A stretch of 64,000 nucleotides of DNA from a virus (lineage: Duplodnaviria; Caudoviricetes). The position numbers and the translations under genes were made by a program. Numbering within the stretch: position 1 is the stretch's first letter; each line of letters opens with the position of its first letter. Below, one piece after another: positions 35,720 through 47,721 of the stretch. The notes beneath the pieces were generated by a model. That model did not search any database and was not told where the DNA came from. It saw only the letters and a program-made list of their open reading frames with translations. The stretch is taken from positions 1 to 64,000 of the IMG/VR virus record IMGVR_UViG_2902511754_000003. The stretch is one strand, 5' to 3'.

Positions 35720-35744
35720 TTTCTGTTCCTTTTGCTGAATCTAA

Positions 35745-36136
35745 GGTGCAAGAAACCGCCACACGATTTTCACGGGGAAAAGTGCGGTCGGTTTTGATTA
35801 AGTTTTAGATTACTTGGTAGTTATTGGACTTTGGGTTGTAATTGTTGAGATGTTTTAGCACTCGCCAATTACTCTCATAGTCATATTGGAAATCAGCCGT
35901 GAGGCGTTTCAGGAGTTGATGAACTTCCCGAATAGTGTGCTTATATTCGTAGGCTTGTCCGTAGATTGCACCGGAATATTTTGAACCGATAGTTTCCATT
36001 GCCGGATAAATCATTCGGCAAGTTTCTGTGCCTCGTAAGGCGATAAACCATATCCACGGCAGTAGTTGAAGTTCGTACTCGGTAAATTCAAAAGTGAATT
36101 TCTTTTCGGGTTCGGGTAAGGCGAGCTGTTTTGGCT
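35745..36136. repeat. ~390-bp near-identical repeat with 39815-40206; its first 52 bp also identical at 44929-44980
   Basis: Direct comparison, constant offset 4070. Confidence 0.95.
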
Positions 36137-36476
36137 CAAGTTGATATTTTCCTGTTTTGCGGATTTGGGGTAGCACTTCTTCAAATACCCACGCTTCAAA
36201 AGGTTCAGCTTCGGGCTTTCTGCTTTTGATGATCAAGCGGTATAAATTTGGTTCGTTGATGTAAACTAATTCCTGATTTCCCTTTTCTGTAAGGGTGTAA
36301 CGTTTCGTTACACCCTTTGCTTTGCAATGATCTTGCAATGCTTTACGTGAATTTGTGTAGCCTAAAATATCGCAAACGTCCGCTCCACAGAACCAATGTT
36401 CTTGATTTGGATCTGTGATAACACGAACTGCATTTGAATTAAAATTGAAAGATTGGAATTGAATTTGATTTGACAT
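35805..36476 (-). CDS. Antirepressor-like: Bro-N + P22_AR_C-like domain
   Basis: VRVIT...WFCGADVCDILGY...INEPNLYRLI Bro-N; shared C-terminus. Confidence 0.88.
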   Translation of the reverse strand: MSNQIQFQSFNFNSNAVRVITDPNQEHWFCGADVCDILGYTNSRKALQDHCKAKGVTKRYTLTEKGNQELVYINEPNLYRLIIKSRKPEAEPFEAWVFEEVLPQIRKTGKYQLEPKQLALPEPEKKFTFEFTEYELQLLPWIWFIALRGTETCRMIYPAMETIGSKYSGAIYGQAYEYKHTIREVHQLLKRLTADFQYDYESNWRVLKHLNNYNPKSNNYQVI

Positions 36477-36724
36477 AATGTAATCCTATTACTATTTGTT
36501 GAAACAAGCCATTTTTCAGAATGGCGGTCAGGAGGCTGAAAAACCCCGTAATAGGAAAGGGCTGGACGTATTCCCCGAAGGTATTGTATTAGTCGCCCTC
36601 CCGACCATAGTCAGGATTACGGATATAAAAAAATCGCCTTGTGGCGATTAGTGAACTATCCGCCTATTACATTAAGGTTTTCAGACCTTAGGCGGATAGT
36701 AAAACAAAACCCCGTGGATTGCAA
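36477..36724 (-). ncRNA. C4/CI-like antisense RNA control region, copy 1 (sRNA ~36627-36693)
   Basis: TTGCAA-17-TACTAT promoter, hairpins, U run, downstream complementary targets. Confidence 0.75.
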
Positions 36725-36740
36725 CGGGGTTTTTGAAAAT

Positions 36741-37145
36741 TTATTCATCTTCGTTTCGTCTTTGTTGTTCCAGTGTGGTTATTTTACCACGTCCGAAACC
36801 TGCGATATAACCAGCTAATAATGCACCACCAATTTTAAGCACCTCTAGAGCAAAAGCAGTATTATCTGTAAACATTGATACAAAAATAACGGCAACAACC
36901 GCAACAATAACAATACCGATAATAATATTGCGTTGTGTGTGCATTTTGGAAACTGCTTTTATTTGTTCGTTCCTGTCGCCTTTTTGTGCGTCAATGCTTG
37001 CCAGTGCAATCTTTTCATTGGATTTTATACGCTCTTGTTCAACTGCTAATTCTTTTTCTTTCACGGCTTGATTAGCTTGTTGTACTTTGACTAAATCTCG
37101 CATTGTGGCGAGAAGTTGAACGTCTGTTTGTGGCTTTGGATTCAT
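36741..37145 (-). CDS. Coiled-coil + two-TM membrane protein
   Basis: Sequence composition; coupled to 64-aa upstream ORF. Confidence 0.75.
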   Translation of the reverse strand: MNPKPQTDVQLLATMRDLVKVQQANQAVKEKELAVEQERIKSNEKIALASIDAQKGDRNEQIKAVSKMHTQRNIIIGIVIVAVVAVIFVSMFTDNTAFALEVLKIGGALLAGYIAGFGRGKITTLEQQRRNEDE

Positions 37146-37146
37146 A

Positions 37147-37341
37147 CTATCTCAACGGGCAAAGTTGTGGTGTTTTGTAAGTGATCTGGAATGAACCGTA
37201 ACCACTTGAACCGATTGTAGGTGGTACAAAAGTAACAGATTGGATATTGTTATTTACACTCGCTTTTTTCGCTTCATTCAAGTACTGCTTGGCTGAAACA
37301 TTGCGAGTTTTTCTAGGAACAAGCAATTTTGTTTTAGTCAT
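37147..37341 (-). CDS. Hypothetical 64-aa protein
   Basis: MTKTKLLVPRK start with AAAGG RBS. Confidence 0.6.
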   Translation of the reverse strand: MTKTKLLVPRKTRNVSAKQYLNEAKKASVNNNIQSVTFVPPTIGSSGYGSFQITYKTPQLCPLR

Positions 37342-37391
37342 AATAAATACCTTTGGTTGTGCGAAAATCCCTTGTGAAATAGGGTTTCTAT

Positions 37392-37470
37392 GAAAAGAGC
37401 CACTTAATGCGACTTGCTGACATTCTGTTGAAAGTGGGTTTAGTTTAGTCTGAATTGGGGGCGGTGTCAA
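37392..37470 (-). ncRNA. Promoter + ~50-nt two-hairpin leader/sRNA, copy A
   Basis: TTGACA-17-TAAACT; homologous to 41636-41716. Confidence 0.6.
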
Positions 37471-37519
37471 ATTTTTCAAAAGCAAAACCACTTATTAAAA
37501 TGTGAGATATGCCTCAAAA

Positions 37520-37756
37520 TTAAAATGATTTTGTTGAAGATGAAAATCGCTGTGCTATTCTTTTGATCGCCTTTGCTAACCACGAGGTATCTTTTACTGG
37601 AATGTGAATTGATTGCGTAATTTCGCCTTCGTAGGTTGCTTGGGAAACTGCCTTTATTTTTTCTTTGGCTTGCTTTGGCGTATCGGCAAAGATATTGATA
37701 ACCCAAGTTTGACCCTCAAAATGATAAGTAAAGGTATATTCTTTCATTTGGTGCAT
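37520..37756 (-). CDS. Hypothetical phage protein
   Basis: ORF co-oriented with left arm. Confidence 0.65.
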   Translation of the reverse strand: MHQMKEYTFTYHFEGQTWVINIFADTPKQAKEKIKAVSQATYEGEITQSIHIPVKDTSWLAKAIKRIAQRFSSSTKSF

Positions 37757-37767
37757 AAGGAGCTCCT

Positions 37768-37950
37768 ATGTATTTTGAAATTTATAAAGATGCGAAAGGT
37801 GAATTTCGCTGGAGATTGAAAGCAGGTAATCACCAATCTATAGCGACAAGTGGTGAAGGCTATACAACAAAGCAAAGTTGCCAACACGCCATTGGCGTTA
37901 TTAAAACTGTAAATGAACAAACAGAAGTTAAAGACTTGACTGTTGCTTAA
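37768..37950 (+). CDS. YegP/DUF1508-family protein
   Basis: YFEIYKDAKGEFRWRLKAGNHQSIATSGEGY; AAGGAG RBS; terminator 37956-37978. Confidence 0.88.
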   Translation: MYFEIYKDAKGEFRWRLKAGNHQSIATSGEGYTTKQSCQHAIGVIKTVNEQTEVKDLTVA

Positions 37951-38041
37951 AATTTAGCCCTGTAATAACAGGGCTTTTATAAAATGAAACTGTGCATAAG
38001 AGCGGTTAGGTTAATTGCGGTTTGTATCAACAACCGGCAAC

Positions 38042-38311
38042 TCAACAAACGCATTGAGCGGTTGTGGTGTTGTTTGTCTTTTCGTCAATCCAAGCCAATA
38101 AGTCTTTAAACTCATCGTAGTAACGGGCTTGCTTAGTTGCTTCTTTAACAACAAAGTCACGCATTTCGCTATCTGAAAGTAGCCAGTATTTTTTAACCTG
38201 TTCAATCGCTCTTAATCGGTTAGGTCTTCTAAGATTAAAATTGTCGTGTATGTACTTACAAAACAATTCAGAGAAAAACGAATAAGCTATACTGATATGC
38301 ATTTCGTTCAT
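38042..38311 (-). CDS. Hypothetical phage protein
   Basis: Coupled to 38311-38967. Confidence 0.55.
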   Translation of the reverse strand: MNEMHISIAYSFFSELFCKYIHDNFNLRRPNRLRAIEQVKKYWLLSDSEMRDFVVKEATKQARYYDEFKDLLAWIDEKTNNTTTAQCVC

Positions 38312-38967
38312 TAATCCGCTCCTAAAATTCTGCTCTTCGCCACTTCGATCAATAGTTGATACTCGCGTTTGGTTTTCTCGTCATGTACTTTCGCCGATTT
38401 TGCTAAAAACTCATCGACTGTGCCGGTAAAACAACCTCTTGTAACGATTAAGTCATCCTTGCCATTAAACACTGTGAGTGTACCGTTCTCGGTACCGACA
38501 TTACTCGCCCAGAAAATCATTTTTCGCTCGGAAACAATGGCGCAAGAACTAACCCGAGCGTTGCCATATACCCGAGCGTTGCCATATACCCGAGCGTTGC
38601 CATATACCCGAGCGTTGCCATATACCCGAGCGTTGCCATATACCTCAGCGTTGCCACATACCTCAGCGTTGCCATATACCTCAGCGTTGCCATATACCTC
38701 AGCGTTGCCATATACCTCAGCGTTGCCAAATACCCGAGCGTTGCCATATACCCGAGCGTTGCCATATACCTCAGCGTTGCCAAATACCCGAGCGTTGCCA
38801 CATACCCAAGCGTTGCCAGATTGATCTAAATTTTTCTCTGCTTCGATATAGCCGCCAAGTTCGCCGGCAACTACTGCACCAAAAGAGATTAGGGCTTTAA
38901 TGCGATATAGCGTTCTGCCCAAATATTCTTTGGTGTCATCTTTCAACAGTTCGTATTTCTTTTGCAT
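38311..38967 (-). CDS. Hexapeptide (GNAxVY) repeat protein
   Basis: 15 tandem hexapeptides between conserved flanks. Confidence 0.9.
   Translation of the reverse strand: MQKKYELLKDDTKEYLGRTLYRIKALISFGAVVAGELGGYIEAEKNLDQSGNAWVCGNARVFGNAEVYGNARVYGNARVFGNAEVYGNAEVYGNAEVYGNAEVCGNAEVYGNARVYGNARVYGNARVYGNARVYGNARVSSCAIVSERKMIFWASNVGTENGTLTVFNGKDDLIVTRGCFTGTVDEFLAKSAKVHDEKTKREYQLLIEVAKSRILGAD
38548..38817. repeat. 15 x 18-bp tandem repeat
   Basis: Units such as ATATACCCGAGCGTTGCC / ATATACCTCAGCGTTGCC. Confidence 0.97.
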
Positions 38968-39024
38968 TTTGTTTGTCCTATAAAAAAGCCCACGGTTAAG
39001 TGGGCGGTGTGGTTCAGAATGGGA

Positions 39025-39669
39025 TTAGCTCATTTCCTGAATGAGCTGTTGATAATATTCTTGGGCAGCACTAACACGTTCTTTGATTTTGTCGATGATG
39101 GCGTTATCACGTTTGACGGTCACGGTAGTGATCCGTTTGTCTTGCGGAATTTGTTCGACTAAATCAATGTAGCGTTCGGGGCTATCATAACTACTGAGCA
39201 TTTCGTAAGGAGTAGGGAAGAGGACAAAATCAATTTGTGCTTCTTCACAATCCCATAGCCACATATAGCCTTGCATTTGAATGTCATAACCGGCTTTTTT
39301 CGCTTTATCTTCGGCTTCGTCTGTAAAGAACGGGTGAGTGCCAATATCCCACGAGCATTTTGTATCAATAATGAGCTTGCGAGAGGGAACGTAAATATCA
39401 CACTCTCCCGTGATCCATTCATTCTCTCGGCGTTCAGTGTTTTTCTTGAGGGGCAAGCCTCGTTTTCTGCCACTTAATTTAATGGCTTGTTCTTCCAGAA
39501 GATTCCCTTTTTCGGTGTATTTGTTGCCTTCAAAATCTTGATAACCGAACAGATCGAATTTAGCGATCTTTCTGACCGCACTTTTGGCGGTGTCGGAAAG
39601 TCCTTCTCCGCCTCTCTTCTGTGGCATTAAGTCAGCAAGACCTGAACATCTGGCTTTGAATTGGTACAT
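39025..39669 (-). CDS. YqaJ/lambda-exo-like PD-(D/E)xK exonuclease
   Basis: ITGECDI...IIDTKCSW, QMQGYMW. Confidence 0.8.
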   Translation of the reverse strand: MYQFKARCSGLADLMPQKRGGEGLSDTAKSAVRKIAKFDLFGYQDFEGNKYTEKGNLLEEQAIKLSGRKRGLPLKKNTERRENEWITGECDIYVPSRKLIIDTKCSWDIGTHPFFTDEAEDKAKKAGYDIQMQGYMWLWDCEEAQIDFVLFPTPYEMLSSYDSPERYIDLVEQIPQDKRITTVTVKRDNAIIDKIKERVSAAQEYYQQLIQEMS

Positions 39670-39678
39670 CGTTATTCC

Positions 39679-39789
39679 TTATTGTTGAATGTGAGAAATT
39701 TTCCCATCGTAGTCGTGGGTGAGATCCAGTTGATATGCGCTGATAATCACAAACACGGCAAGCACAATTTTTAAACCTTTCTTGAACAT
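39679..39789 (-). CDS. 36-aa membrane peptide with DYDGK motif (not in ORF track)
   Basis: MFKKGLKIVLAVFVIISAYQLDLTHDYDGKISHIQQ; AAGGA RBS; stop overlaps exo RBS. Confidence 0.75.
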   Translation of the reverse strand: MFKKGLKIVLAVFVIISAYQLDLTHDYDGKISHIQQ

Positions 39790-39874
39790 TTTTTCTTCCT
39801 TTTGCTGAAATTTGGGTGCAAGAAACCGCCACACGATTTTCACGGGGAAAAGTGCGGTCGGTTTTGATTAAGTT

Positions 39875-40567
39875 TTAGATTACTTGGTAGTTATTAGATT
39901 TCGGGTTGTAATTCTCGAGGTGTTTTAGCACTCGCCAGTTACTCTCATAGTCGTATTTGAAATCGGCTGTAAGGCGTTTCAGTAGCTTATGAACTTCCCG
40001 AATAGTGTGCTTATATTCGTAGGCTTGTCCGTAGATTGCACCGGAATATTTTGAACCGATAGTTTCCATTGCCGGATAAATCATTCGGCAAGTTTCTGTG
40101 CCTCGTAAGGCGATAAACCATATCCACGGCAGTAGTTGAAGTTCGTACTCGGTAAATTCAAACTTGAATTTCTTTTCCGGCTCGGGCAAGGCGAGTTGTT
40201 TTGGCTGATTTTTCTCAATTAGAATTTTTTCAATTTGTTCATCACACCAAATAGCAAATTCAACATTTAACCAACGAGCAAATGGAACAGCAAGACGACG
40301 GTGTAGCCAAGTGCCTTGTTGAGATAAATCTTTACCACCTTTGATTGTTTTTACGAAGTGGGATTTCCCTACTTTGGCAGCGTTACCAGATTTTCTGGTT
40401 TCGGTCTTTTTGCAAAGGGTTTCAATATATTCTTGAGTTGTCGGTAACGTTAGCCAGTCATTAGGACGTTTATTAAAATGTTTTGCAATAGCCGTTGCAT
40501 TAAGATATGCGTCATCTTGGAAGAAAACTTGAGTGCCGTTGTAATCGGCGGTGATGATATTTGTCAT
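39875..40567 (-). CDS. Antirepressor-like: KilA-N + P22_AR_C-like domain
   Basis: YLNATAIAKHF..RPNDWL, GTWLH..LAVPFARWL. Confidence 0.88.
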   Translation of the reverse strand: MTNIITADYNGTQVFFQDDAYLNATAIAKHFNKRPNDWLTLPTTQEYIETLCKKTETRKSGNAAKVGKSHFVKTIKGGKDLSQQGTWLHRRLAVPFARWLNVEFAIWCDEQIEKILIEKNQPKQLALPEPEKKFKFEFTEYELQLLPWIWFIALRGTETCRMIYPAMETIGSKYSGAIYGQAYEYKHTIREVHKLLKRLTADFKYDYESNWRVLKHLENYNPKSNNYQVI

Positions 40568-40814
40568 TTTGACTCTCCACTTGATATTTTCGATAATTCA
40601 CCATTTTTCGACAAATGGTGCCGAGAGGTTCGAAAGCCTTCAAGTGGTTAGGCTGGACGTATTTCCCTTGCGGGTATTGTATTAGTCGCCCTCTCGACTT
40701 AACGAGATTTCGGCATAAAAAAGACCGCACTTTGGCGATCCGTTTACTACCGCCACTTGAAAAAGGTTTCGACACCTTGGGGCGGATAGTAGTATAAAGT
40801 GTTGGGGTTGTCAA
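40568..40814 (-). ncRNA. C4/CI-like antisense RNA control region, copy 2 (sRNA ~40717-40783)
   Basis: TTGACA-17-TACTAT; same fold as copy 1 with different loop/target motifs. Confidence 0.75.
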
Positions 40815-40815
40815 A

Positions 40816-41613
40816 TTAGACTTCATTTTTATCTAAAATATCAATTAAATTTTTGATGTGGTAAAGCACGATTTTGTCGTCTACCGTGTGAACCATTACA
40901 TCAACAATAAAGAGTTTGTGGTAGGGGTGTTCTCGCATTACCATCGTCTGTTTAAGCTCGTTTGTTTCAAAACTCACTTTAATCGCTTTTTTAGTAAAGG
41001 CTTCGATAATAGCTTTGTCGATCTGTTTATCTGCAGCTGTAACGGCTAATTGCATTACACAACCTTTTTGCAATCCGACAATCGGTTCTTTCATTTCATC
41101 CATTTTCTTGCCGATTAGATGCTGTAATGCATTCGCTTTCATATTGTCGGCTTCAAAGTGAATATGAATACCACCATCAACTTTGATTGAGCCGATAGAA
41201 ATGCTTGCTTTTGGGTCATTTGCAACAGGTTCTAAGGCGTGGCTTAGATGGCGCAATTCGCTTACATTTATATTGTCGGGCTGTGGTCGCTTTCCTTGTA
41301 GCCAGCCGTATGTTTGAGCAAGACGTTCTCCAAACTCAAAAATAGCATTGCTATGTTCAATAAGTGTGTAAGTTGCGGCAACATAAGTTCCTAACTCGAC
41401 AATAATGCTACCTTTGGTAATTTGTGTAACGTAGATGTTACTATCACAAGGTTGTAAATTTTGTTCTGGTGTAGAGTTTTGAATAAAGCGTGAATATTCT
41501 TTTGAAATGCCATCTAAACTTTGACATAAGGTGGATAACTCCACTGGTTTATCATTATGTAAGTAAATTTGTAATTTCATATTCTCATCGATTACTGTAA
41601 ATGGTTCTGTCAT
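40816..41613 (-). CDS. Hypothetical 265-aa moron protein
   Basis: GAGG RBS at MTEPF, own promoter/leader. Confidence 0.8.
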   Translation of the reverse strand: MTEPFTVIDENMKLQIYLHNDKPVELSTLCQSLDGISKEYSRFIQNSTPEQNLQPCDSNIYVTQITKGSIIVELGTYVAATYTLIEHSNAIFEFGERLAQTYGWLQGKRPQPDNINVSELRHLSHALEPVANDPKASISIGSIKVDGGIHIHFEADNMKANALQHLIGKKMDEMKEPIVGLQKGCVMQLAVTAADKQIDKAIIEAFTKKAIKVSFETNELKQTMVMREHPYHKLFIVDVMVHTVDDKIVLYHIKNLIDILDKNEV

Positions 41614-41635
41614 AACACGCCTCAAAATTCAGATA

Positions 41636-41716
41636 CAAAAAAAGCCACTTAATTGTGGCTTGCCGACTTTCTGTTGAAAGTAGGCATAGTCTAGAATAAA
41701 GGGCGGTGGGTGTCAA
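41636..41716 (-). ncRNA. Promoter + ~50-nt two-hairpin leader/sRNA, copy B
   Basis: TTGACA-17-TAGACT; ACTTTC-AACA-GAAAGT and AAGCCAC/GTGGCTT + T run. Confidence 0.6.
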
Positions 41717-41720
41717 ATGT

Positions 41721-42131
41721 TTAGATTAGTGATTGTCGAATAATTAGCTCTTGGTGTGCTGAAATATCGTCTGATTGCAATGCACATTGTTGAATATATT
41801 TTAGATGTTCATTAACTAATATTCCACAATGAAATAATTCAGAATTACCTATTCGATTGCCCAATTCATTTTTATCAAGTTCATAAAATTCATCAAAACA
41901 AATCCAAGTATTTTTACTCAGTATAGGGTTACTATTTTGTGGCAAAAAGAATGCTTGATGCGTATTTAACTGACAACCATATTCAAGGGTATATCTCCAC
42001 CCCTTTGAAGTGGTTTTAGCTACAATCAATTTTTGTGATGTCATACCCAAAATAATTAGGTATTTATCACGCTCTCCGCCATCATTAAACTTGAATTTAG
42101 GATGAAATAAGATTGAACCCAACTGAAGCAT
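41721..42131 (-). CDS. Putative PemK/MazF-like toxin
   Basis: GSILF..F.F.DG..RDKYLIILG......VAKTTS; coupled to Panacea gene. Confidence 0.6.
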   Translation of the reverse strand: MLQLGSILFHPKFKFNDGGERDKYLIILGMTSQKLIVAKTTSKGWRYTLEYGCQLNTHQAFFLPQNSNPILSKNTWICFDEFYELDKNELGNRIGNSELFHCGILVNEHLKYIQQCALQSDDISAHQELIIRQSLI

Positions 42132-42688
42132 TACTTTAACACCTCAAGCAGTGCTAGACGTTCAATACTGTCCTTGTGCATTGACTCCCTATTTTGGCTT
42201 GGTAATGCTAACTCATAAGGAATTATTTCTTTCTTTTTGCCTTCAACTTCATAGATTTGATGCCACGGTAAACGTTCAAGGTGGGTTGCTTCGATCATAT
42301 CATCAGCAAATGCATTTTTATATTGCTGTGCTAATGTATTAAGTATTTTTAATTCTCGTTTAGAAAAATGGGTTTGATCAAATTCAGACAAGGCATTAAA
42401 TTTCAGCATTTCTTGTCTTCCTTTACGGATGGGAATTTGTTCAATTTTGATTTTAGCTAGAAAATCGGCTTCTGGCTGTTTAATTTCTTCATGTAAATCG
42501 ACAGGTACAGGTCCCATTTTCCAAGCAGAATAATCAAGCCCTGTTACGGAACGCCCTACTTGTTTGTAATGCTCAAAATCAAGGAAATAAAGCAACTTAA
42601 AGAGCTTTATTTTCCCTAACTTTTCAACATTTTGAGAAAAAAAAGTAATTACTTGTAACAATTTTTCTCTATTGTGAGTGATGAGCAT
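42131..42688 (-). CDS. Panacea/DUF4065 (SocA/GepA-like) antitoxin
   Basis: KIKLFKLLYFLDFEHY...TGLDYSAWKMGPVP; TH.E.PW. Confidence 0.88.
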   Translation of the reverse strand: MLITHNREKLLQVITFFSQNVEKLGKIKLFKLLYFLDFEHYKQVGRSVTGLDYSAWKMGPVPVDLHEEIKQPEADFLAKIKIEQIPIRKGRQEMLKFNALSEFDQTHFSKRELKILNTLAQQYKNAFADDMIEATHLERLPWHQIYEVEGKKKEIIPYELALPSQNRESMHKDSIERLALLEVLK

Positions 42689-42763
42689 TGATTTTCCTCT
42701 TTTGACTAGTGTGGTTATAGTACTTAATTTTTAATTTTAAATAAAGAATAAGAATTTCTGACG

Positions 42764-43702
42764 TTATAGTTTCTCCAACTTCTCCAATTCGTCATACTGT
42801 TCTTTGCTGAACTCATACATCCCACTATCACACAATTCTTGTAGTGTGGTTTCACCGTTGATGATGTTTTGTTTGCATTGTTCAAAGGTTTCCTCATCAA
42901 CAACTGTAATGATGTTATCCTCTTCTTTTTTGCCGCCCTCTTGCTTGTCCATTTCATCAATGCGGTATTTGTCGTTTCCATTTTCAATTTCAACCGCTCT
43001 TGCGATTTGTTCCTGACGTTCTTCCATTGGCATTTTACTGAGAACATATTTAATGGCTTTCCCAATGTACATTTCCAAATTCCACAAGGTGTAAGGCGAA
43101 TAGCTGCCATTTTTCTTGCTTGGGCTGACTCCGGCAATTTGTAGGATTTTGCCAAAACTCACAAAGCGGTGAGAAATTTCATTGTTTTCTTTTGTGGAAA
43201 CCAAAACGCCACGGAGATGACCTTCAACCCAAGCCGGTTCATAATCTTTTTGGTTATCAACATCAGGGATATGTTTGACGACAGTGTCAAATCCATCGCT
43301 TACCATTTCAAATTGATCGCAGTCAAAAATAGGTGTCGCACGTAAATTAATGCCGGCACGTTTGGCTAATAATTGCCATCCTTTGTAGCCAATCTGAAAT
43401 TCGGCATCTTTTTTGTACTTAACGATATAAGCAAGCCCCATATTTTTATTGAGTGGCAAGTCTAATTCTGCCGCTTGTAAACCGGACTTCACAATGCTTT
43501 CAGGGGTACAATAGACAAGCGAATCATCAAGCGCCACATTGAGTAATGTGGCTGCAAATTTCTCTTTCTTGTTTGGATCTGAGAGCAAACTTTTAATTCG
43601 GCTTTGGATACCTGCACTACCAATATAATGTTTGATATCGACTTTTCGTTGTTCTATCGGCGTTAGTTTTTTTTCTTTGCTTTCTGTTTTGTTATCTGTC
43701 AT
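42764..43702 (-). CDS. recT: RecT-family single-strand annealing protein
   Basis: QAAELDLPL...AYIVKY...FQIGYKG. Confidence 0.85.
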   Translation of the reverse strand: MTDNKTESKEKKLTPIEQRKVDIKHYIGSAGIQSRIKSLLSDPNKKEKFAATLLNVALDDSLVYCTPESIVKSGLQAAELDLPLNKNMGLAYIVKYKKDAEFQIGYKGWQLLAKRAGINLRATPIFDCDQFEMVSDGFDTVVKHIPDVDNQKDYEPAWVEGHLRGVLVSTKENNEISHRFVSFGKILQIAGVSPSKKNGSYSPYTLWNLEMYIGKAIKYVLSKMPMEERQEQIARAVEIENGNDKYRIDEMDKQEGGKKEEDNIITVVDEETFEQCKQNIINGETTLQELCDSGMYEFSKEQYDELEKLEKL

Positions 43703-43714
43703 TTTTCACCTCAC

Positions 43715-44008
43715 TTAATCAGGGGCATACTCATTCATTCGTTTATCTAGACGTTGCTTTGCTACATAAGCAATAGCTCGCTCTCGCACTTCGGTGAGCT
43801 TATAAAAAGCACCGGAACCGATAGCTAAATCGTGCAATGCTAACTCTTCATCGTTGTAGGCAATGTATTCATTAATCGCATAAATAACGTTTTCATCTTC
43901 ATTTTCAGCATCGGCTTTGATGGCTTCTATTTCTTGTTCGAGGGCAATTTCATAGCCGGCGAGGTTGTCTAGGTGTTCTTGATGGGCTGTGGCGAGAAAA
44001 GGTTTCAT
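43715..44008 (-). CDS. Hypothetical acidic phage protein
   Basis: ATGA-coupled ORF. Confidence 0.7.
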   Translation of the reverse strand: MKPFLATAHQEHLDNLAGYEIALEQEIEAIKADAENEDENVIYAINEYIAYNDEELALHDLAIGSGAFYKLTEVRERAIAYVAKQRLDKRMNEYAPD

Positions 44009-44490
44009 TTTGCTTGCTCCTGTGTGGCTTTTACCATTTCTGCCAACATTGCGAACATTGCCGGTTCAAGTACAATGGTGCGTGCGCTTGCACGGCGGTC
44101 TAAATGTAGGCGGATGTTGCCGTGTTTATCCACTAAATAACCGGTTAATCCATAAGGCGTGAAAGGCTTGCGATGTGGTTTTCGTGCCGGTTTTTGCAGC
44201 GTGGCTGGCTTCGGTGTTGTTCCTGTTAATTCAATTTTGGGTGATTCGGGTTTAACAGGTTTTGGTTCAATTTTTTTCATATTCGTCTTTCCTTTTTCAT
44301 AATGCGGAATTTTTGTACTATTTAATAAATTGAATGAATCAATTCGTTTGTTTAAGGCGTTAATCGCAACCATTTCGTTCATAAGAGGATAAGTGCGAAT
44401 TTCCCGTTTATTATTTACCCAGAGTTCACCGTGATATTTTTTCGAATCAGCATTAAAAAGAACGTGCATTTTGTAACTTTCAACTTTCAT
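44005..44490 (-). CDS. Hypothetical phage protein
   Basis: ATGA-coupled ORF. Confidence 0.7.
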   Translation of the reverse strand: MKVESYKMHVLFNADSKKYHGELWVNNKREIRTYPLMNEMVAINALNKRIDSFNLLNSTKIPHYEKGKTNMKKIEPKPVKPESPKIELTGTTPKPATLQKPARKPHRKPFTPYGLTGYLVDKHGNIRLHLDRRASARTIVLEPAMFAMLAEMVKATQEQAK

Positions 44491-44894
44491 TTTTTAGCCC
44501 TCAAAGTGCGGTCAATTTCCGCTTGTTTTTGAGCGGTATAAATTCGCAGTTCTTGTTCTGCTTGTGGGGTTAAATTAGGCGGTAAGCAAAGCCCGTTTTC
44601 ATACACACCGCCTTTCAGTTCGCAACGGGTTTCAAGGCTGATTTGTTCGCTGACTTCGTTATTGTGCCAGTCGGTTGGGTTGCCCCACGCTTGAGAGACA
44701 CTAAAAATGGCAATCACTACGATTGCGGTGGCGAGTAAAACAAGTGCGCCTTTGCCAAGAAAGGCGAGAAATTCAAAGATTGATTTGTGCATAATGGTGT
44801 CCTTTTTCGGTGGCTCGTTAAGAAATACGGTGCGAGAGCGCATTGCGGTTTGGTTTCGTTGTTGCCGCTTACGGCGTTTTTGTCGTTTGTTCAT
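44487..44894 (-). CDS. Hypothetical membrane-anchored protein
   Basis: Basic N-terminus, one TM segment, CELKGG...C. Confidence 0.7.
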   Translation of the reverse strand: MNKRQKRRKRQQRNQTAMRSRTVFLNEPPKKDTIMHKSIFEFLAFLGKGALVLLATAIVVIAIFSVSQAWGNPTDWHNNEVSEQISLETRCELKGGVYENGLCLPPNLTPQAEQELRIYTAQKQAEIDRTLRAKK

Positions 44895-44988
44895 TTTGTT
44901 TCCTTTTTAATCAATTTACTGAATTTAGGGTGCAAGAAACCGCCACACGATTTTCACGGGGAAAAGTGCGGTCGGTTTTGGTTGAGTT

Positions 44989-45630
44989 TTAGAAATTTAT
45001 TTTGATCGCTTTTAAATCAAATTGGCGTAAGTGTTTTAGTACTCGCCAATTCGTCATTGGATCAATGTCAAAACTTGCGGTTAGTCGGTTTAAGATTTGG
45101 TTGGTTGAGCGTAGCACGCTTAAATATTCGTAAGCCTGTCCGTAAATTTGTCCGCTCATATTTGAACCTAAAACATCAAAGGCTTTTTCAATGTGTTGGA
45201 ATGTGCCTACGCCACGTTTGAAAGCAAACCAGAGCCAAGCAAGTTCTTGAAGCTCATACTCGGTAAATTCAAAGGTGAATTTCTTTTCAGGTTCGGGTAA
45301 AGCAAGTTGTTTCGGTGGCTCAATCTGATTTAAGAACGCTCTGAGGACGACAAGGTGAAAAGCAGGGCTTATCCATGCAGCGTAGGCGATAACGAGTTCT
45401 TTACAGGCGTATGTGCCACCTTGTGAACCTCGAATTATTTTAAATGTACAGATCTGTACATTTGAATTTTCACTCTCAATTGCTGAAATAAGATCTTTTG
45501 TTTGATCTAAGCGAAGAAAATGAGAGGGGCGATGTTTTTCAGCTCCGCCACTAAGAGAGTGAAGATCATTTAAAGCGTAAAGGTTATCAAGAGTGCGGAT
45601 TGAAGTGTTAAGAATAGTTAGATTTGACAT
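44989..45630 (-). CDS. Antirepressor-like: KilA-N + P22_AR_C-like domain
   Basis: YALNDLH...KHRPSHFLR, GTYACKELVIAYAAWISP. Confidence 0.88.
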   Translation of the reverse strand: MSNLTILNTSIRTLDNLYALNDLHSLSGGAEKHRPSHFLRLDQTKDLISAIESENSNVQICTFKIIRGSQGGTYACKELVIAYAAWISPAFHLVVLRAFLNQIEPPKQLALPEPEKKFTFEFTEYELQELAWLWFAFKRGVGTFQHIEKAFDVLGSNMSGQIYGQAYEYLSVLRSTNQILNRLTASFDIDPMTNWRVLKHLRQFDLKAIKINF

Positions 45631-45898
45631 ACTTTGTTCCTTCTACGAAAAGAAATGGTGATCGAGTGGTTCGTAGGCTGAACAAAGACAGCTGGACGTA
45701 TTTCCCGAAGGTATTGTATTAGTCGCCCACTCGATCATAGATTGTAAATTACCTTTTTGTACAAAAATTGTGGGAAAGAGAAAAGAGATCACAAATTTTG
45801 GACACAAAAAAATCACGCTGACGGGGTGAATTACCGCTTTGTTTATAAGGCTACGACACCTTGGAATAAATCCTACCCTTGAACGTTGGGATTGTCAA
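45631..45898 (-). ncRNA. C4/CI-like antisense RNA control region, copy 3 (sRNA ~45806-45864)
   Basis: TTGACA-17-TAGGAT; same fold, third motif pair. Confidence 0.72.
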
Positions 45899-45911: not shown

Positions 45912-46373
45912 TTATGCCCGCTCCATTCCTGCGTAGGAACCAGCAAATAGCTCTTTCTGTGCTGCAACCGCTAAGAAGTGGCTGCGATCGCGATAGAGTG
46001 AATTATTGGCAACACGGTTATCAATGTTGTGGAGTAGATATTGCGGAATGCTGATATTGATTCGTTGTTTTTTTCCGAAAAATTCAGACACATCAATATC
46101 AACTAATAACCAAGTGTCGCAATACTCATAATCTTCGTGTTTTTGATATTCGGCAAAACCGAGATCTTTGATTGTAGAAAAATCAAAGCCTGTTTCTGCC
46201 ATATCTTCAAGAACAAGGTGAATAGCGTCCGTTACCATTGGCAAAATATCTTCAATTTTGTCAGCGGCACTAATGCAGTGGTAAAGGTCGTTAGACAATG
46301 CGGGAACATAAAGCCCGATTGCGGTTTTATCATCTTTCGGCATTTCAACGCCGATAGTAAATAACATAAGCAA
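45912..46373 (-). CDS. hicB: HicB antitoxin
   Basis: Partial RNase H fold N-terminus + RINISIP ribbon-helix-helix. Confidence 0.88.
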   Translation of the reverse strand: MLMLFTIGVEMPKDDKTAIGLYVPALSNDLYHCISAADKIEDILPMVTDAIHLVLEDMAETGFDFSTIKDLGFAEYQKHEDYEYCDTWLLVDIDVSEFFGKKQRINISIPQYLLHNIDNRVANNSLYRDRSHFLAVAAQKELFAGSYAGMERA

Positions 46374-46395
46374 GCTCCTTGTTAGCTCGGCGGAG

Positions 46396-46578
46396 CTAAA
46401 GCCCCGCCGATTTTTTGATGGATTTTAAAGTTCCGATGGCTAAATCCTTTTTCGGGTGGGGAACTGGAAAGGTTTTTCCGGTTTTAGGCGAGTACCAAAT
46501 TTGATGATCGCCTTTTCCCATTCGTTTGAGATAACAGCCGTGAGCTTTAAGCTCCGAGATTAAGTCAGCTGAGTGCAT
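46396..46578 (-). CDS. hicA: HicA toxin
   Basis: KGDHQIW...VPHPKKDLAIGTLKSI; promoter TTGAAA-17-TATAAT upstream. Confidence 0.92.
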   Translation of the reverse strand: MHSADLISELKAHGCYLKRMGKGDHQIWYSPKTGKTFPVPHPKKDLAIGTLKSIKKSAGL

Positions 46579-46664
46579 GCTTCCTCCTGTTGTCTTAATC
46601 TGGAAATAATTATACACACAACAAACACATGTTTCAATGAGTTTAATAATTTTAGGGAGAAATA

Positions 46665-47222
46665 ATGCGAGTGAAACCACTCAAACCGAAGAAATGCAAA
46701 GTGTGCAGTAAAGAATTTACTCCGTTTAACTCAATGCAAAAGGCTTGTTCTCCAAAATGCGCAATAGAGCTCGTTCGAAATAACTCACAGAAAGCCCGAG
46801 AGAAAGCGGAGATGCAAAGGCTAAGGGAACGTAAGGTTAAATTAAAAAGTCGCTCAGAATGGCTGAAAGAGGCGCAATCGGTATTTAATAAATTCATTCG
46901 TCTGAGGGATAAAGACGAGCCTTGTATCAGTTGTGGTCGCTATCATCAAGGGCAATGGCACGCAGGACATTATCGCAGTGTTGGGGCTGCACCTGAATTA
47001 AGATTTTGTGAGTTGAATGTCCATAAACAATGCCAACCGTGCAATAACCATAAAAGCGGAAATGTGATTGAGTATCGAATTAATTTGGTAAGAAAAATCG
47101 GTGCAGATAAAGTCGAGTGGCTCGAACGCCAAGACCACGATCCGAAAAAGTACACGATCGAAGATTGCAAAGAAATTATTCAGTATTACAAAGAACAAAT
47201 TAAAGGGATGACTGATGCGTAA
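46665..47222 (+). CDS. ninG: NinG/Rap recombination endonuclease
   Basis: CKVC..CSPKC, CISCG, HAGHYRS, QCQPCN. Confidence 0.92.
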   Translation: MRVKPLKPKKCKVCSKEFTPFNSMQKACSPKCAIELVRNNSQKAREKAEMQRLRERKVKLKSRSEWLKEAQSVFNKFIRLRDKDEPCISCGRYHQGQWHAGHYRSVGAAPELRFCELNVHKQCQPCNNHKSGNVIEYRINLVRKIGADKVEWLERQDHDPKKYTIEDCKEIIQYYKEQIKGMTDA

Positions 47223-47721
47223 ATTTAGCGATTTAACTTTAACAAGTGAGCAAGAACGATTTGTTGATGAATGGATGTACAAATGGGGAGCTTGGGTGCG
47301 TTCCGGTAGGCTTAATAAGGCTCAAGTGAATATTATCGCTAGATTAATGCAATCGGTAATTCCGGCTGAGCCCAGTGAGCCAATTTGTAATGATGATGAA
47401 GGAGTTATGATTAGTCAGGTTGTGGAACAATTCTTTGTAAAAAATGACCGAATTTTACATTTTATTTTGTTTGCTTACTACGTAAATAAACGTACTGTAA
47501 ATTTTATTGCCAATAAACTACGTGAAAATTGCGGAGAGATTCAAATGCAGCCTTGTGCAGGTAAACCAAATATTCGAGTGCCTAGCGCGCTTACTATGCG
47601 TAGAAAAATTGAAAAAGAATTGATGTTTGCAAAATCAATAATTCACGAATTGCTTGTAACTGGTTTTGTATTGTTGCGAACTGGTCGAGAAAATGCAAAA
47701 AATATTAAAATCACTTATTGA
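47215..47721 (+). CDS. Q: Antiterminator Q-like protein
   Basis: WGAWVR motif; between ninG and late promoter/lysis genes. Confidence 0.8.
   Translation: MRKFSDLTLTSEQERFVDEWMYKWGAWVRSGRLNKAQVNIIARLMQSVIPAEPSEPICNDDEGVMISQVVEQFFVKNDRILHFILFAYYVNKRTVNFIANKLRENCGEIQMQPCAGKPNIRVPSALTMRRKIEKELMFAKSIIHELLVTGFVLLRTGRENAKNIKITY

Follow-up and report, generated by a model that had tools for sequence, protein, structure and literature searches.

What controls the antirepressor genes of a prophage that carries several of them, each behind its own promoter and its own set of short complementary motifs? This question was raised by a Pasteurellaceae provirus of the Caudoviricetes (Duplodnaviria; IMG/VR record IMGVR_UViG_2902511754_000003), whose whole record is 73,763 bases long and of which positions 1 to 64,000, here called the window, were analyzed. 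An initial annotation had proposed C4-like antisense-RNA modules preceding antirepressor genes, and we found such modules upstream of the open reading frames (ORFs) that start at 36476, 40567 and 45630 on the minus strand. As judged by their domains, Bro-N or KilA-N plus P22_AR_C (Pfam E-values of 1e-19 to 1e-29), the downstream genes are antirepressor-type, i.e., P22 Ant-like. The three cassettes annotated were all present in the window, and the provirus holds four in total: the Rfam search of the whole record located the RNA of a fourth past the window end, on the plus strand (G000:C1:68098-68181). The order of parts is the same in each cassette, namely a sigma-70 promoter, a leader with the motifs a1 and b1, a hairpin followed by a T-run, a structured RNA of 80-87 nt, an RCCA-like tail, the motifs a2 and b2, and the antirepressor gene. 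The sigma-70 promoters annotated upstream of the three ORFs were confirmed, all with a 17-bp spacer; those of copies 2 and 3 were among the best sites of the promoter scan, and that of cassette 1 shares sequence with the terminator (36733-36706) of the gene upstream of it. The data presented below suggest that the structured RNA probably silences the gene behind it by pairing at the Shine-Dalgarno (SD).

The structured RNA in each cassette

When the whole window was scanned with Rfam, three matches and no more exceeded the gathering score of 53 bits; all of them were to the family sRNA-Xcc1 (RF02221), with E-values from 1e-7 to 6e-10. The RNA of the fourth copy scored 60.3 bits, and the four matches all span model positions 1-87. 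This RNA has an outer stem enclosing two hairpins; the loop of the second hairpin is the recognition motif b', the 3' junction is the motif a', and the predicted folds place both at these positions. Relatives were recovered with a pattern of 24 bases taken from hairpin 1, which is invariant, and this search gave 53 viral-contig and 20 genome loci; they condense to 44 distinct loci with 29 distinct a'/b' combinations, and 34 distinct cores were used for the structure tests. The named relatives in this set are all Pasteurellaceae, plus one Gilliamella. In the 34 cores, standard pairs were formed by 99.5% of cells, against 27-43% with slid partners. Compensatory changes were found at 8 pairs, every one in the outer stem or hairpin 2, and the observed covariation score was reached by 0 of 500 shuffles. 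These results bear out the selection on RNA structure that had been suspected from the swap of a C(UUCG)G for a C(GCAA)G tetraloop in copy 2. The swap itself is real, and the hairpin 1 tetraloop varies further among relatives (UUCG, GCAA, GAAA, GUAA and others). A covariance model built from the 34 cores and run unfiltered recovered all cassette RNAs, finding exactly the four in the provirus record. A chance origin is excluded because of the Rfam E-values together with the covariation across relatives. The tails 3' of the outer stem read ACCA, CACCA, CGCCA or CACCC; CGCCA was found in cassette 1, ACCA in cassette 2 (where the tetraloop is GCAA) and CACCA in cassette 3. By analogy, such RCCA-like tails fit the RNase P processing reported for c4.

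The closest layout is that of the phage P1 immI region, whose annotated order is promoters, a1, b1, a terminator-like hairpin, the c4 RNA (77 nt), a2, b2 and the ribosome-binding site (RBS), with a2 three bases past the c4 RNA and b2 about 10 nt before the start of icd. This P1 stretch scored 68.8 bits with the Rfam model C4, 51 bits with c4-a1b1 and 35 bits, below threshold, with isrK, and the isrK match covers a1/b1 and the terminator-like hairpin. In the C4 consensus, the outer stem encloses a UUCG hairpin and a second one whose large loop is b', and a 7-nt junction (a') and a CCACC tail complete the molecule. The sRNA-Xcc1 consensus shares this topology, with CaCCC as its tail. Since part order and RNA topology agree with annotated P1, the window cassettes reproduce its layout part for part, and the immI regions of P1 and P7 also share the CCA-like tail and a downstream antirepressor with them. 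The initial annotation had taken the upstream hairpin for the small RNA and the conserved core for its target. This assignment did not hold: the core itself matches sRNA-Xcc1 and holds the position of c4, whereas the upstream element is the counterpart of a1/b1 and thus of the IsrK-like portion. Differences from P1 were also observed. The outer stem has 9 bp and not the 17 bp of P1 C4, hairpin 1 is extended and its internal loop is invariant, an icd leader ORF is lacking, so that a2/b2 lie directly on the antirepressor SD, no C1-type operator was seen at the promoter, and the provirus has four modules instead of one. Likewise, no operator of any kind was recognized at the cassette promoters. 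P4, P1, P7 and N15 have been described as sharing an 'IsrK-C4 immunity system' made of an IsrK-like seqA and a C4-like CI (PMC3632133). By their architecture, the cassettes are a c4/CI-type ('IsrK-C4') module.

Recognition motifs and their sites

In every copy, a' and b' are complementary to two pairs of sites, a1/b1 upstream and a2/b2 downstream, and all the motifs listed in the initial annotation were present, each complementary as stated. The b2 site overlaps the SD in all four copies, b' carries the anti-SD sequence CCU, and the distance from b2/SD to the antirepressor start codon is 5-10 nt. Each copy has its own code (Table 1), and the longest cognate matches in copies 1 to 4 were 9/8, 8/6, 8/7 and 7/7 nt (b/a), against at most 6/6 nt for non-cognate combinations; the a motifs of copies 1 and 2 have 6 nt in common. 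When the variable part of each RNA was paired with the four leaders by RNAduplex, the diagonal was strongest for all four. RNAcofold energies of whole-molecule association showed no clear diagonal, and they were set aside because the contacts in question, kissing contacts between loop and leader, are pseudoknots, which that model cannot form. The four RNA-target pairs are predicted from their sequences to be free of cross-talk. That the motifs differ per copy and covary with their own targets could be extended to the 44 loci and 29 specificities: the match of b' with b2 averaged 7.0 nt for cognate and 4.5 nt for non-cognate pairs, and that of b' with b1 7.4 and 5.1 nt, with a permutation p <= 1e-4 in both cases. 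A likeness to these private a/b codes is found in the heteroimmunity of P1 and P7, where specificity also comes from a few bases. The covariation shows a1/b1 to be under the same constraint as the true target; therefore, a1/b1 must pair with a'/b'.

The U-run-terminated RNA of the initial annotation, put there at about 60-70 nt, corresponds to the a1/b1 leader, which is 56-63 nt long from the predicted start and has b1 8-12 nt before the terminator; the terminator is convincing only in copies 1 and 2, copies 3 and 4 having a stem of about 4 bp before T7 and then a 70-nt spacer. A hairpin with a T-run (at least six T) follows a1/b1 in 38 of the 44 loci. In copy 2, the minimum free energy (MFE) fold of the leader joins a1/b1 to a'/b'. 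No tested role of a1/b1 was found in the annotated P1 record or in the literature searched; the candidates are a trans decoy or activator (IsrK precedent), a partner in cis for as long as the transcript is not processed, and a site of termination control (P4 precedent). A leader ORF had also been annotated in copies 1 and 3, with its ATG replaced in copy 2. We discarded it: the ATG, found in 33 of the 44 loci, stands at the 5' edge of the RNA without an SD, and the frame is of variable length and occurs in two phases relative to the invariant core among relatives. A separate promoter for the small RNA in the spacer past the T-run was rejected as well, the sole candidate (45763-45734, 9/12 matches) being placed to start inside the outer stem. 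In cassette 1, a weak partial match to Rfam AaHKsRNA82 (36611-36649, minus strand; 23 bits, E 0.2) spans the terminator and the spacer. This sRNA of Aggregatibacter was derived from RNA-seq, and the text of its source paper makes no mention of phage; an unannotated stretch of Aggregatibacter phage S1249 is 87.6% identical to the RNA region of cassette 1.

Table 1. Positions of the cassette parts and associated features (window coordinates; scores are for sRNA-Xcc1).
Feature	Position	Strand	Remarks
Cassette 1 promoter	36724-36696	-	TTGCAA-17-TACTAT
Cassette 1 a1/b1 leader	36627-36695	-	
Cassette 1 a1	36684-36678	-	CTGAAAA; in loop of small hairpin
Cassette 1 b1	36670-36663	-	GTAATAGG
Cassette 1 intrinsic terminator hairpin	36649-36632	-	then T7
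Cassette 1 c4-like RNA	36519-36605	-	sRNA-Xcc1, 56.0 bits
Cassette 1 b'	36555-36548	-	CCTATTAC; hairpin-2 loop
Cassette 1 a'	36543-36536	-	TTTTTCAG; junction
Cassette 1 target region	36477-36519	-	
Cassette 1 a2	36519-36512	-	CTGAAAAA; hairpin loop formed with CCA tail
Cassette 1 b2	36492-36484	-	GTAATAGGA; covers SD
Antirepressor 1	35805-36476	-	223 aa, Bro-N + P22_AR_C; PHROG anti-repressor Ant
Cassette 2 promoter	40814-40786	-	TTGACA-17-TACTAT
Cassette 2 a1/b1 leader	40717-40785	-	
Cassette 2 a1	40772-40767	-	TCGAAA
Cassette 2 b1	40761-40753	-	TTCAAGTGG
Cassette 2 terminator hairpin	40741-40722	-	then T-run
Cassette 2 c4-like RNA	40612-40698	-	sRNA-Xcc1, 67.1 bits
Cassette 2 b'	40647-40639	-	CCACTTGAA
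Cassette 2 a'	40635-40630	-	TTTCGA
Cassette 2 target region	40568-40611	-	
Cassette 2 a2, two copies	40611-40604; 40593-40587	-	TCGAAAA; first copy in hairpin loop
Cassette 2 b2	40584-40577	-	TCAAGTGG; overlaps SD GGAGAG
Antirepressor 2	39875-40567	-	230 aa, KilA-N + P22_AR_C
Cassette 3 promoter	45898-45870	-	TTGACA-17-TAGGAT
Cassette 3 a1/b1 leader	45806-45869	-	
Cassette 3 a1	45856-45851	-	TCGTAG
Cassette 3 b1	45843-45837	-	AACAAAG
Cassette 3 weak hairpin (~4 bp) + T7	45812-45806 (T7)	-	then 70-nt spacer, then RNA
Cassette 3 c4-like RNA	45653-45735	-	sRNA-Xcc1, 57.0 bits
Cassette 3 b'	45687-45681	-	CTTTGTT
Cassette 3 a'	45676-45671	-	CTACGA
Cassette 3 target region	45631-45652	-	
Cassette 3 a2	45648-45643	-	TCGTAG; with b2 flanks SD AAGGA
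Cassette 3 b2	45638-45632	-	AACAAAG
Antirepressor 3	44989-45630	-	213 aa, KilA-N + P22_AR_C
Antirepressor 4	outside window		219 aa, KilA-N + P22_AR_C
Conserved element (~90 nt) at antirepressor 3' ends	35720-35809; 39790-39879; 44904-44993	-	
Code of copy 1			a CTGAAAA, b GTAATAGG
Code of copy 2			a TCGAAA, b TTCAAGTGG
Code of copy 3			a TCGTAG, b AACAAAG
Code of copy 4			a CTCAAAA, b TGTTCAA

Probable repression at the Shine-Dalgarno and other explanations

We consider it likely that the core RNA, once processed, pairs with b2 through b' and with a2 through a' and so keeps ribosomes off the mRNA of its own antirepressor, and, as part of the same reading and with the same likelihood, that the block covers both the cis-encoded copy and incoming copies with an equal code. 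The promoter would transcribe a short leader bearing a1/b1; many transcripts would end at the hairpin and T-run, and those that read through would hold the three-way-junction RNA of 80-87 nt and the antirepressor mRNA. We infer that, like c4 and CI, the RNA is then cut out by RNase P at its 5' end and trimmed at the RCCA-like tail. In the case of c4, occlusion of the RBS via b' and processing by RNase P have been summarized before (PMC5320573). The RNA would accumulate, and its exposed hairpin-2 loop and 3' junction would pair with b2 and a2; with the SD covered, the antirepressor would not be made in the lysogen, nor from an incoming phage of equal code. The a1/b1 pair would be a target mimic, most likely with a tuning function, either as a terminated trans decoy or as a partner of a'/b' before the transcript is processed. 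The alternate pairing set out in the initial annotation, in which a'/b' would engage either the upstream copy or the one at the RBS, is a live possibility that would resemble the IsrK mechanism of Gifsy-1 (PMC4825925). As the four a/b codes are different, the four cassettes are predicted to act independently on their own paralogous antirepressors. Elsewhere, the copy 2 code was found in prophages whose flanks differ and whose antirepressor has another N-terminus (L140, L130), and the L115 group is a further case of a shared code; such sharing fits immunity groups and a portable module that runs from promoter to SD.

Several points weigh against RBS occlusion by a c4-type RNA. The Rfam models C4 (RF01695), whose use the initial annotation had suggested, c4-a1b1 (RF03163) and isrK (RF01394) were all without a match, both on 14 kb (E <= 1) and on a stretch of 291 nt (E <= 10); the subfamily model from the 34 cores does not find P1 c4. 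Because the C4-type models miss here and the subfamily model misses P1 c4, the kinship with c4 is architectural; C4 and c4-a1b1 form the Rfam clan CL00128, and sRNA-Xcc1 is in no Rfam clan. The coupling step of P1 and IsrK is absent because there is no leader ORF of the icd or orf45 type. Moreover, with a terminator upstream and no convincing promoter of its own, synthesis of the RNA would depend on read-through, and since each RNA is born with at least one a1/b1 mimic, repression needs a processed RNA that outlives the leader. Finally, no repressor gene was recognized among the 20 ORFs scanned in 33.9-48.4 kb.

The upstream leader could have a more active part, in which the short a1/b1 RNA is the main trans regulator and, by pairing with a'/b', frees an RBS that the core holds closed in cis on the read-through transcript, turning the antirepressor on. 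There is a precedent in Gifsy-1 of Salmonella, where the terminated short IsrK, upstream of the antirepressor gene anrP, activates the translation of the mRNA that arises when its own terminator is read through, with a processed stable RNA, STnc1160, downstream of IsrK (Hershko-Shalev et al. 2016, PMC4825925). The isrK-orf45/STnc1160-anrP region resembles the cassettes in having a promoter, a terminated short RNA that is complementary to the downstream RNA, and read-through to a stable RNA and the antirepressor mRNA. Activation by the leader is also in line with the 35 bits that the P1 a1/b1 stretch reached with the isrK model, with a1/b1 matching a'/b' as well as a2/b2 does, with the hairpin and T-run in 38/44 loci, and with the pairing of a1/b1 and a'/b' in the copy 2 leader fold. 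Nevertheless, the core folds into a compact three-way junction that covaries, and with its RCCA-like tail it resembles the processed, trans-acting c4 and CI RNAs; the founding member of sRNA-Xcc1 is a free RNA, stable and 88 nt long as determined by Northern blot and end mapping (PMC2996969); the isrK model has no match here, and no upstream orf45-type ORF is available for translational coupling. In Gifsy-1, activation by the short RNA was demonstrated. We regard activation as the main mode of control as unlikely; it would be compatible with RBS occlusion as an added layer. A control of transcription, in which the processed RNA would bind a1/b1 and a2/b2 while the transcript is still being made and end it prematurely, appears less probable still, and we give it little weight. 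The satellite phage P4 (seqA-CI RNA-seqC) and N15 (CA RNA) also have a processed small RNA between copies of its target, described as structurally homologous to IsrK and C4 (Barquist et al., PMC3632133). In P4, termination results when the CI RNA pairs with seqA and seqC, and the N15 antirepressor is governed by a small processed RNA (PMC4825925, PMC3632133). In the cassettes, b1 lies 8-12 nt before the terminator, and the sequences CCGCC, GGCGG, TCGCC and GGCGA in copies 1 and 2 could pair alternatively. However, those systems act by premature termination, whereas here the target overlaps the SD, and the P4 RNA controls replication genes and not an antirepressor. The location of b2 on the SD in all four copies and the anti-SD CCU in b' are the signature of translational occlusion, and no terminator separates a2/b2 from the start codon. 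Rho-dependent polarity following a translational block would give the same outcome as transcription control and is indistinguishable from it here.

The literature on sRNA-Xcc1 itself, first found in an integron of Xanthomonas campestris (PMC2996969), offers another explanation: the RNAs would mainly be trans regulators of host genes, as proposed for Xanthomonas and Xylella, and the local complementarity would be secondary. The family is presented there as virulence-linked trans sRNAs with predicted host or plant targets, with a large number of host genes predicted as targets and control by HrpG/HrpX reported (PMC2996969, PMC12189769), whereas here the RNA is linked to antirepressors. Those target lists are computational predictions, and the variable loop covaries with sites at most 120 nt to either side in 29 independent specificities; because of this covariation with adjacent sites, a host target could not track the loop, which makes regulation of host genes as the main function highly improbable. 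In the literature searched, no link of sRNA-Xcc1 to c4-type antirepressor control was found; one paper places it upstream of a phage ORF6N gene.

Repression at the SD could be part of a wider scheme, which we offer tentatively and hold to be possible but doubtful. In it, each cassette would be a circuit of three sites, the terminated mimic a1/b1, the antisense a'/b' and the target a2/b2, where the decoy-to-antisense ratio, set by read-through and RNA stability, would be the threshold for antirepressor release. Four orthogonal circuits would then be a library of immunity codes that silences the antirepressors of incoming relatives with the same code and fires four antirepressors independently at co-resident prophages.

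Genomic context and distribution

Copies 1-3 are located in a leftward arm between the integrase gene and hicBA, mixed among exonuclease and RecT genes, and copy 4 among baseplate genes. The four antirepressors have a conserved C-terminal half and divergent N-terminal domains, and the C-terminal half of antirepressor 2 is nearly identical to that of antirepressor 1. The conserved element at the 3' ends of the genes was 90-93% identical between its copies, runs across the stop codon of all three antirepressor genes in the window and contains a bulged hairpin of about 9 bp, then TTTCTTG, with small ORFs next; it was found too in loci L048 and L121. It is probably the 3' boundary of the cassette or a terminator. 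Because each of these genes ends in this common hairpin element, the units look like insulated, portable cassettes. Copy 4 lies in a moron-like insert between baseplate genes (G000:C1:66800-69700; locus L002 / L179:2803-5513) that holds an ORF of 364 aa matching no Pfam or PHROG entry, together with a terminator, the promoter, the RNA, the KilA-N antirepressor and, 3' of it, a second antirepressor gene of P22_AR_N type. At 45912-47721, hicB-hicA (leftward) abuts ninG and a Q-like antiterminator gene (rightward) with no repressor, cro or replication gene between them; the second prophage, to which this region belongs, may lack its immunity and replication block.

A different unit occurs in two copies, 75% identical, at 37408-37476 and 41654-41722 (minus strand), each with a promoter (TTGACA-17-TAAACT or TAGACT), a leader of about 45 nt with a CTTTCAACAGAAAG hairpin, and a terminator. 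These units precede unrelated genes, phrog_2711 and phrog_9226, and show a weak isrD-like Rfam match (29 bits, below threshold); no RNA complementary to their leaders was found. Tandem repeats of 18 nt, about 21 units at 38498-38875, lie inside the gene 38311-38967, which encodes a bactofilin / YdcK beta-solenoid repeat protein.

Related proviruses had 1-4 sRNA-Xcc1 matches each, and five Pasteurellaceae genomes had 2-6 each, some of them back to back. Back-to-back matches down to 7 nt apart, with no space for an antirepressor gene, were observed in other Pasteurellaceae genomes at G010:C22:70262-70437, G001:C1:46757-47317 and G002:C1:11421-11749, and five sRNA-Xcc1 copies in tandem have been described in Xylella (PMC12189769). 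Decayed or recombinant cassettes were also seen (L129:11200-11600 and L122:1650-2000), in which a new promoter past a2 replaces b2 and the antirepressor gene; in L129, the upstream b1 is unmatched to the b' loop. The 'Group 1' C4-like sRNAs of A. baumannii (PMC5320573) are similar in that they have many copies per genome with differing a'/b' and are cut from longer transcripts; those match Rfam C4 and their targets were not identified, whereas here a cognate target adjoins each copy. Several cassettes per prophage are thus common in Pasteurellaceae, and the multiplicity is not very unusual. The cassettes are a structural variant of known phage RNA immunity in four apparently orthogonal copies, with no new principle. 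For the biology of these prophages, they give the Rfam family sRNA-Xcc1 a concrete, testable mechanism, and they indicate that c4-type antirepressor control is widespread, and often multiplexed, in Pasteurellaceae prophages, those of Haemophilus influenzae included. Four compact, apparently orthogonal RNA-target pairs on one scaffold are well suited to the study of the role of a1/b1 and of prophage-prophage communication via antirepressors.

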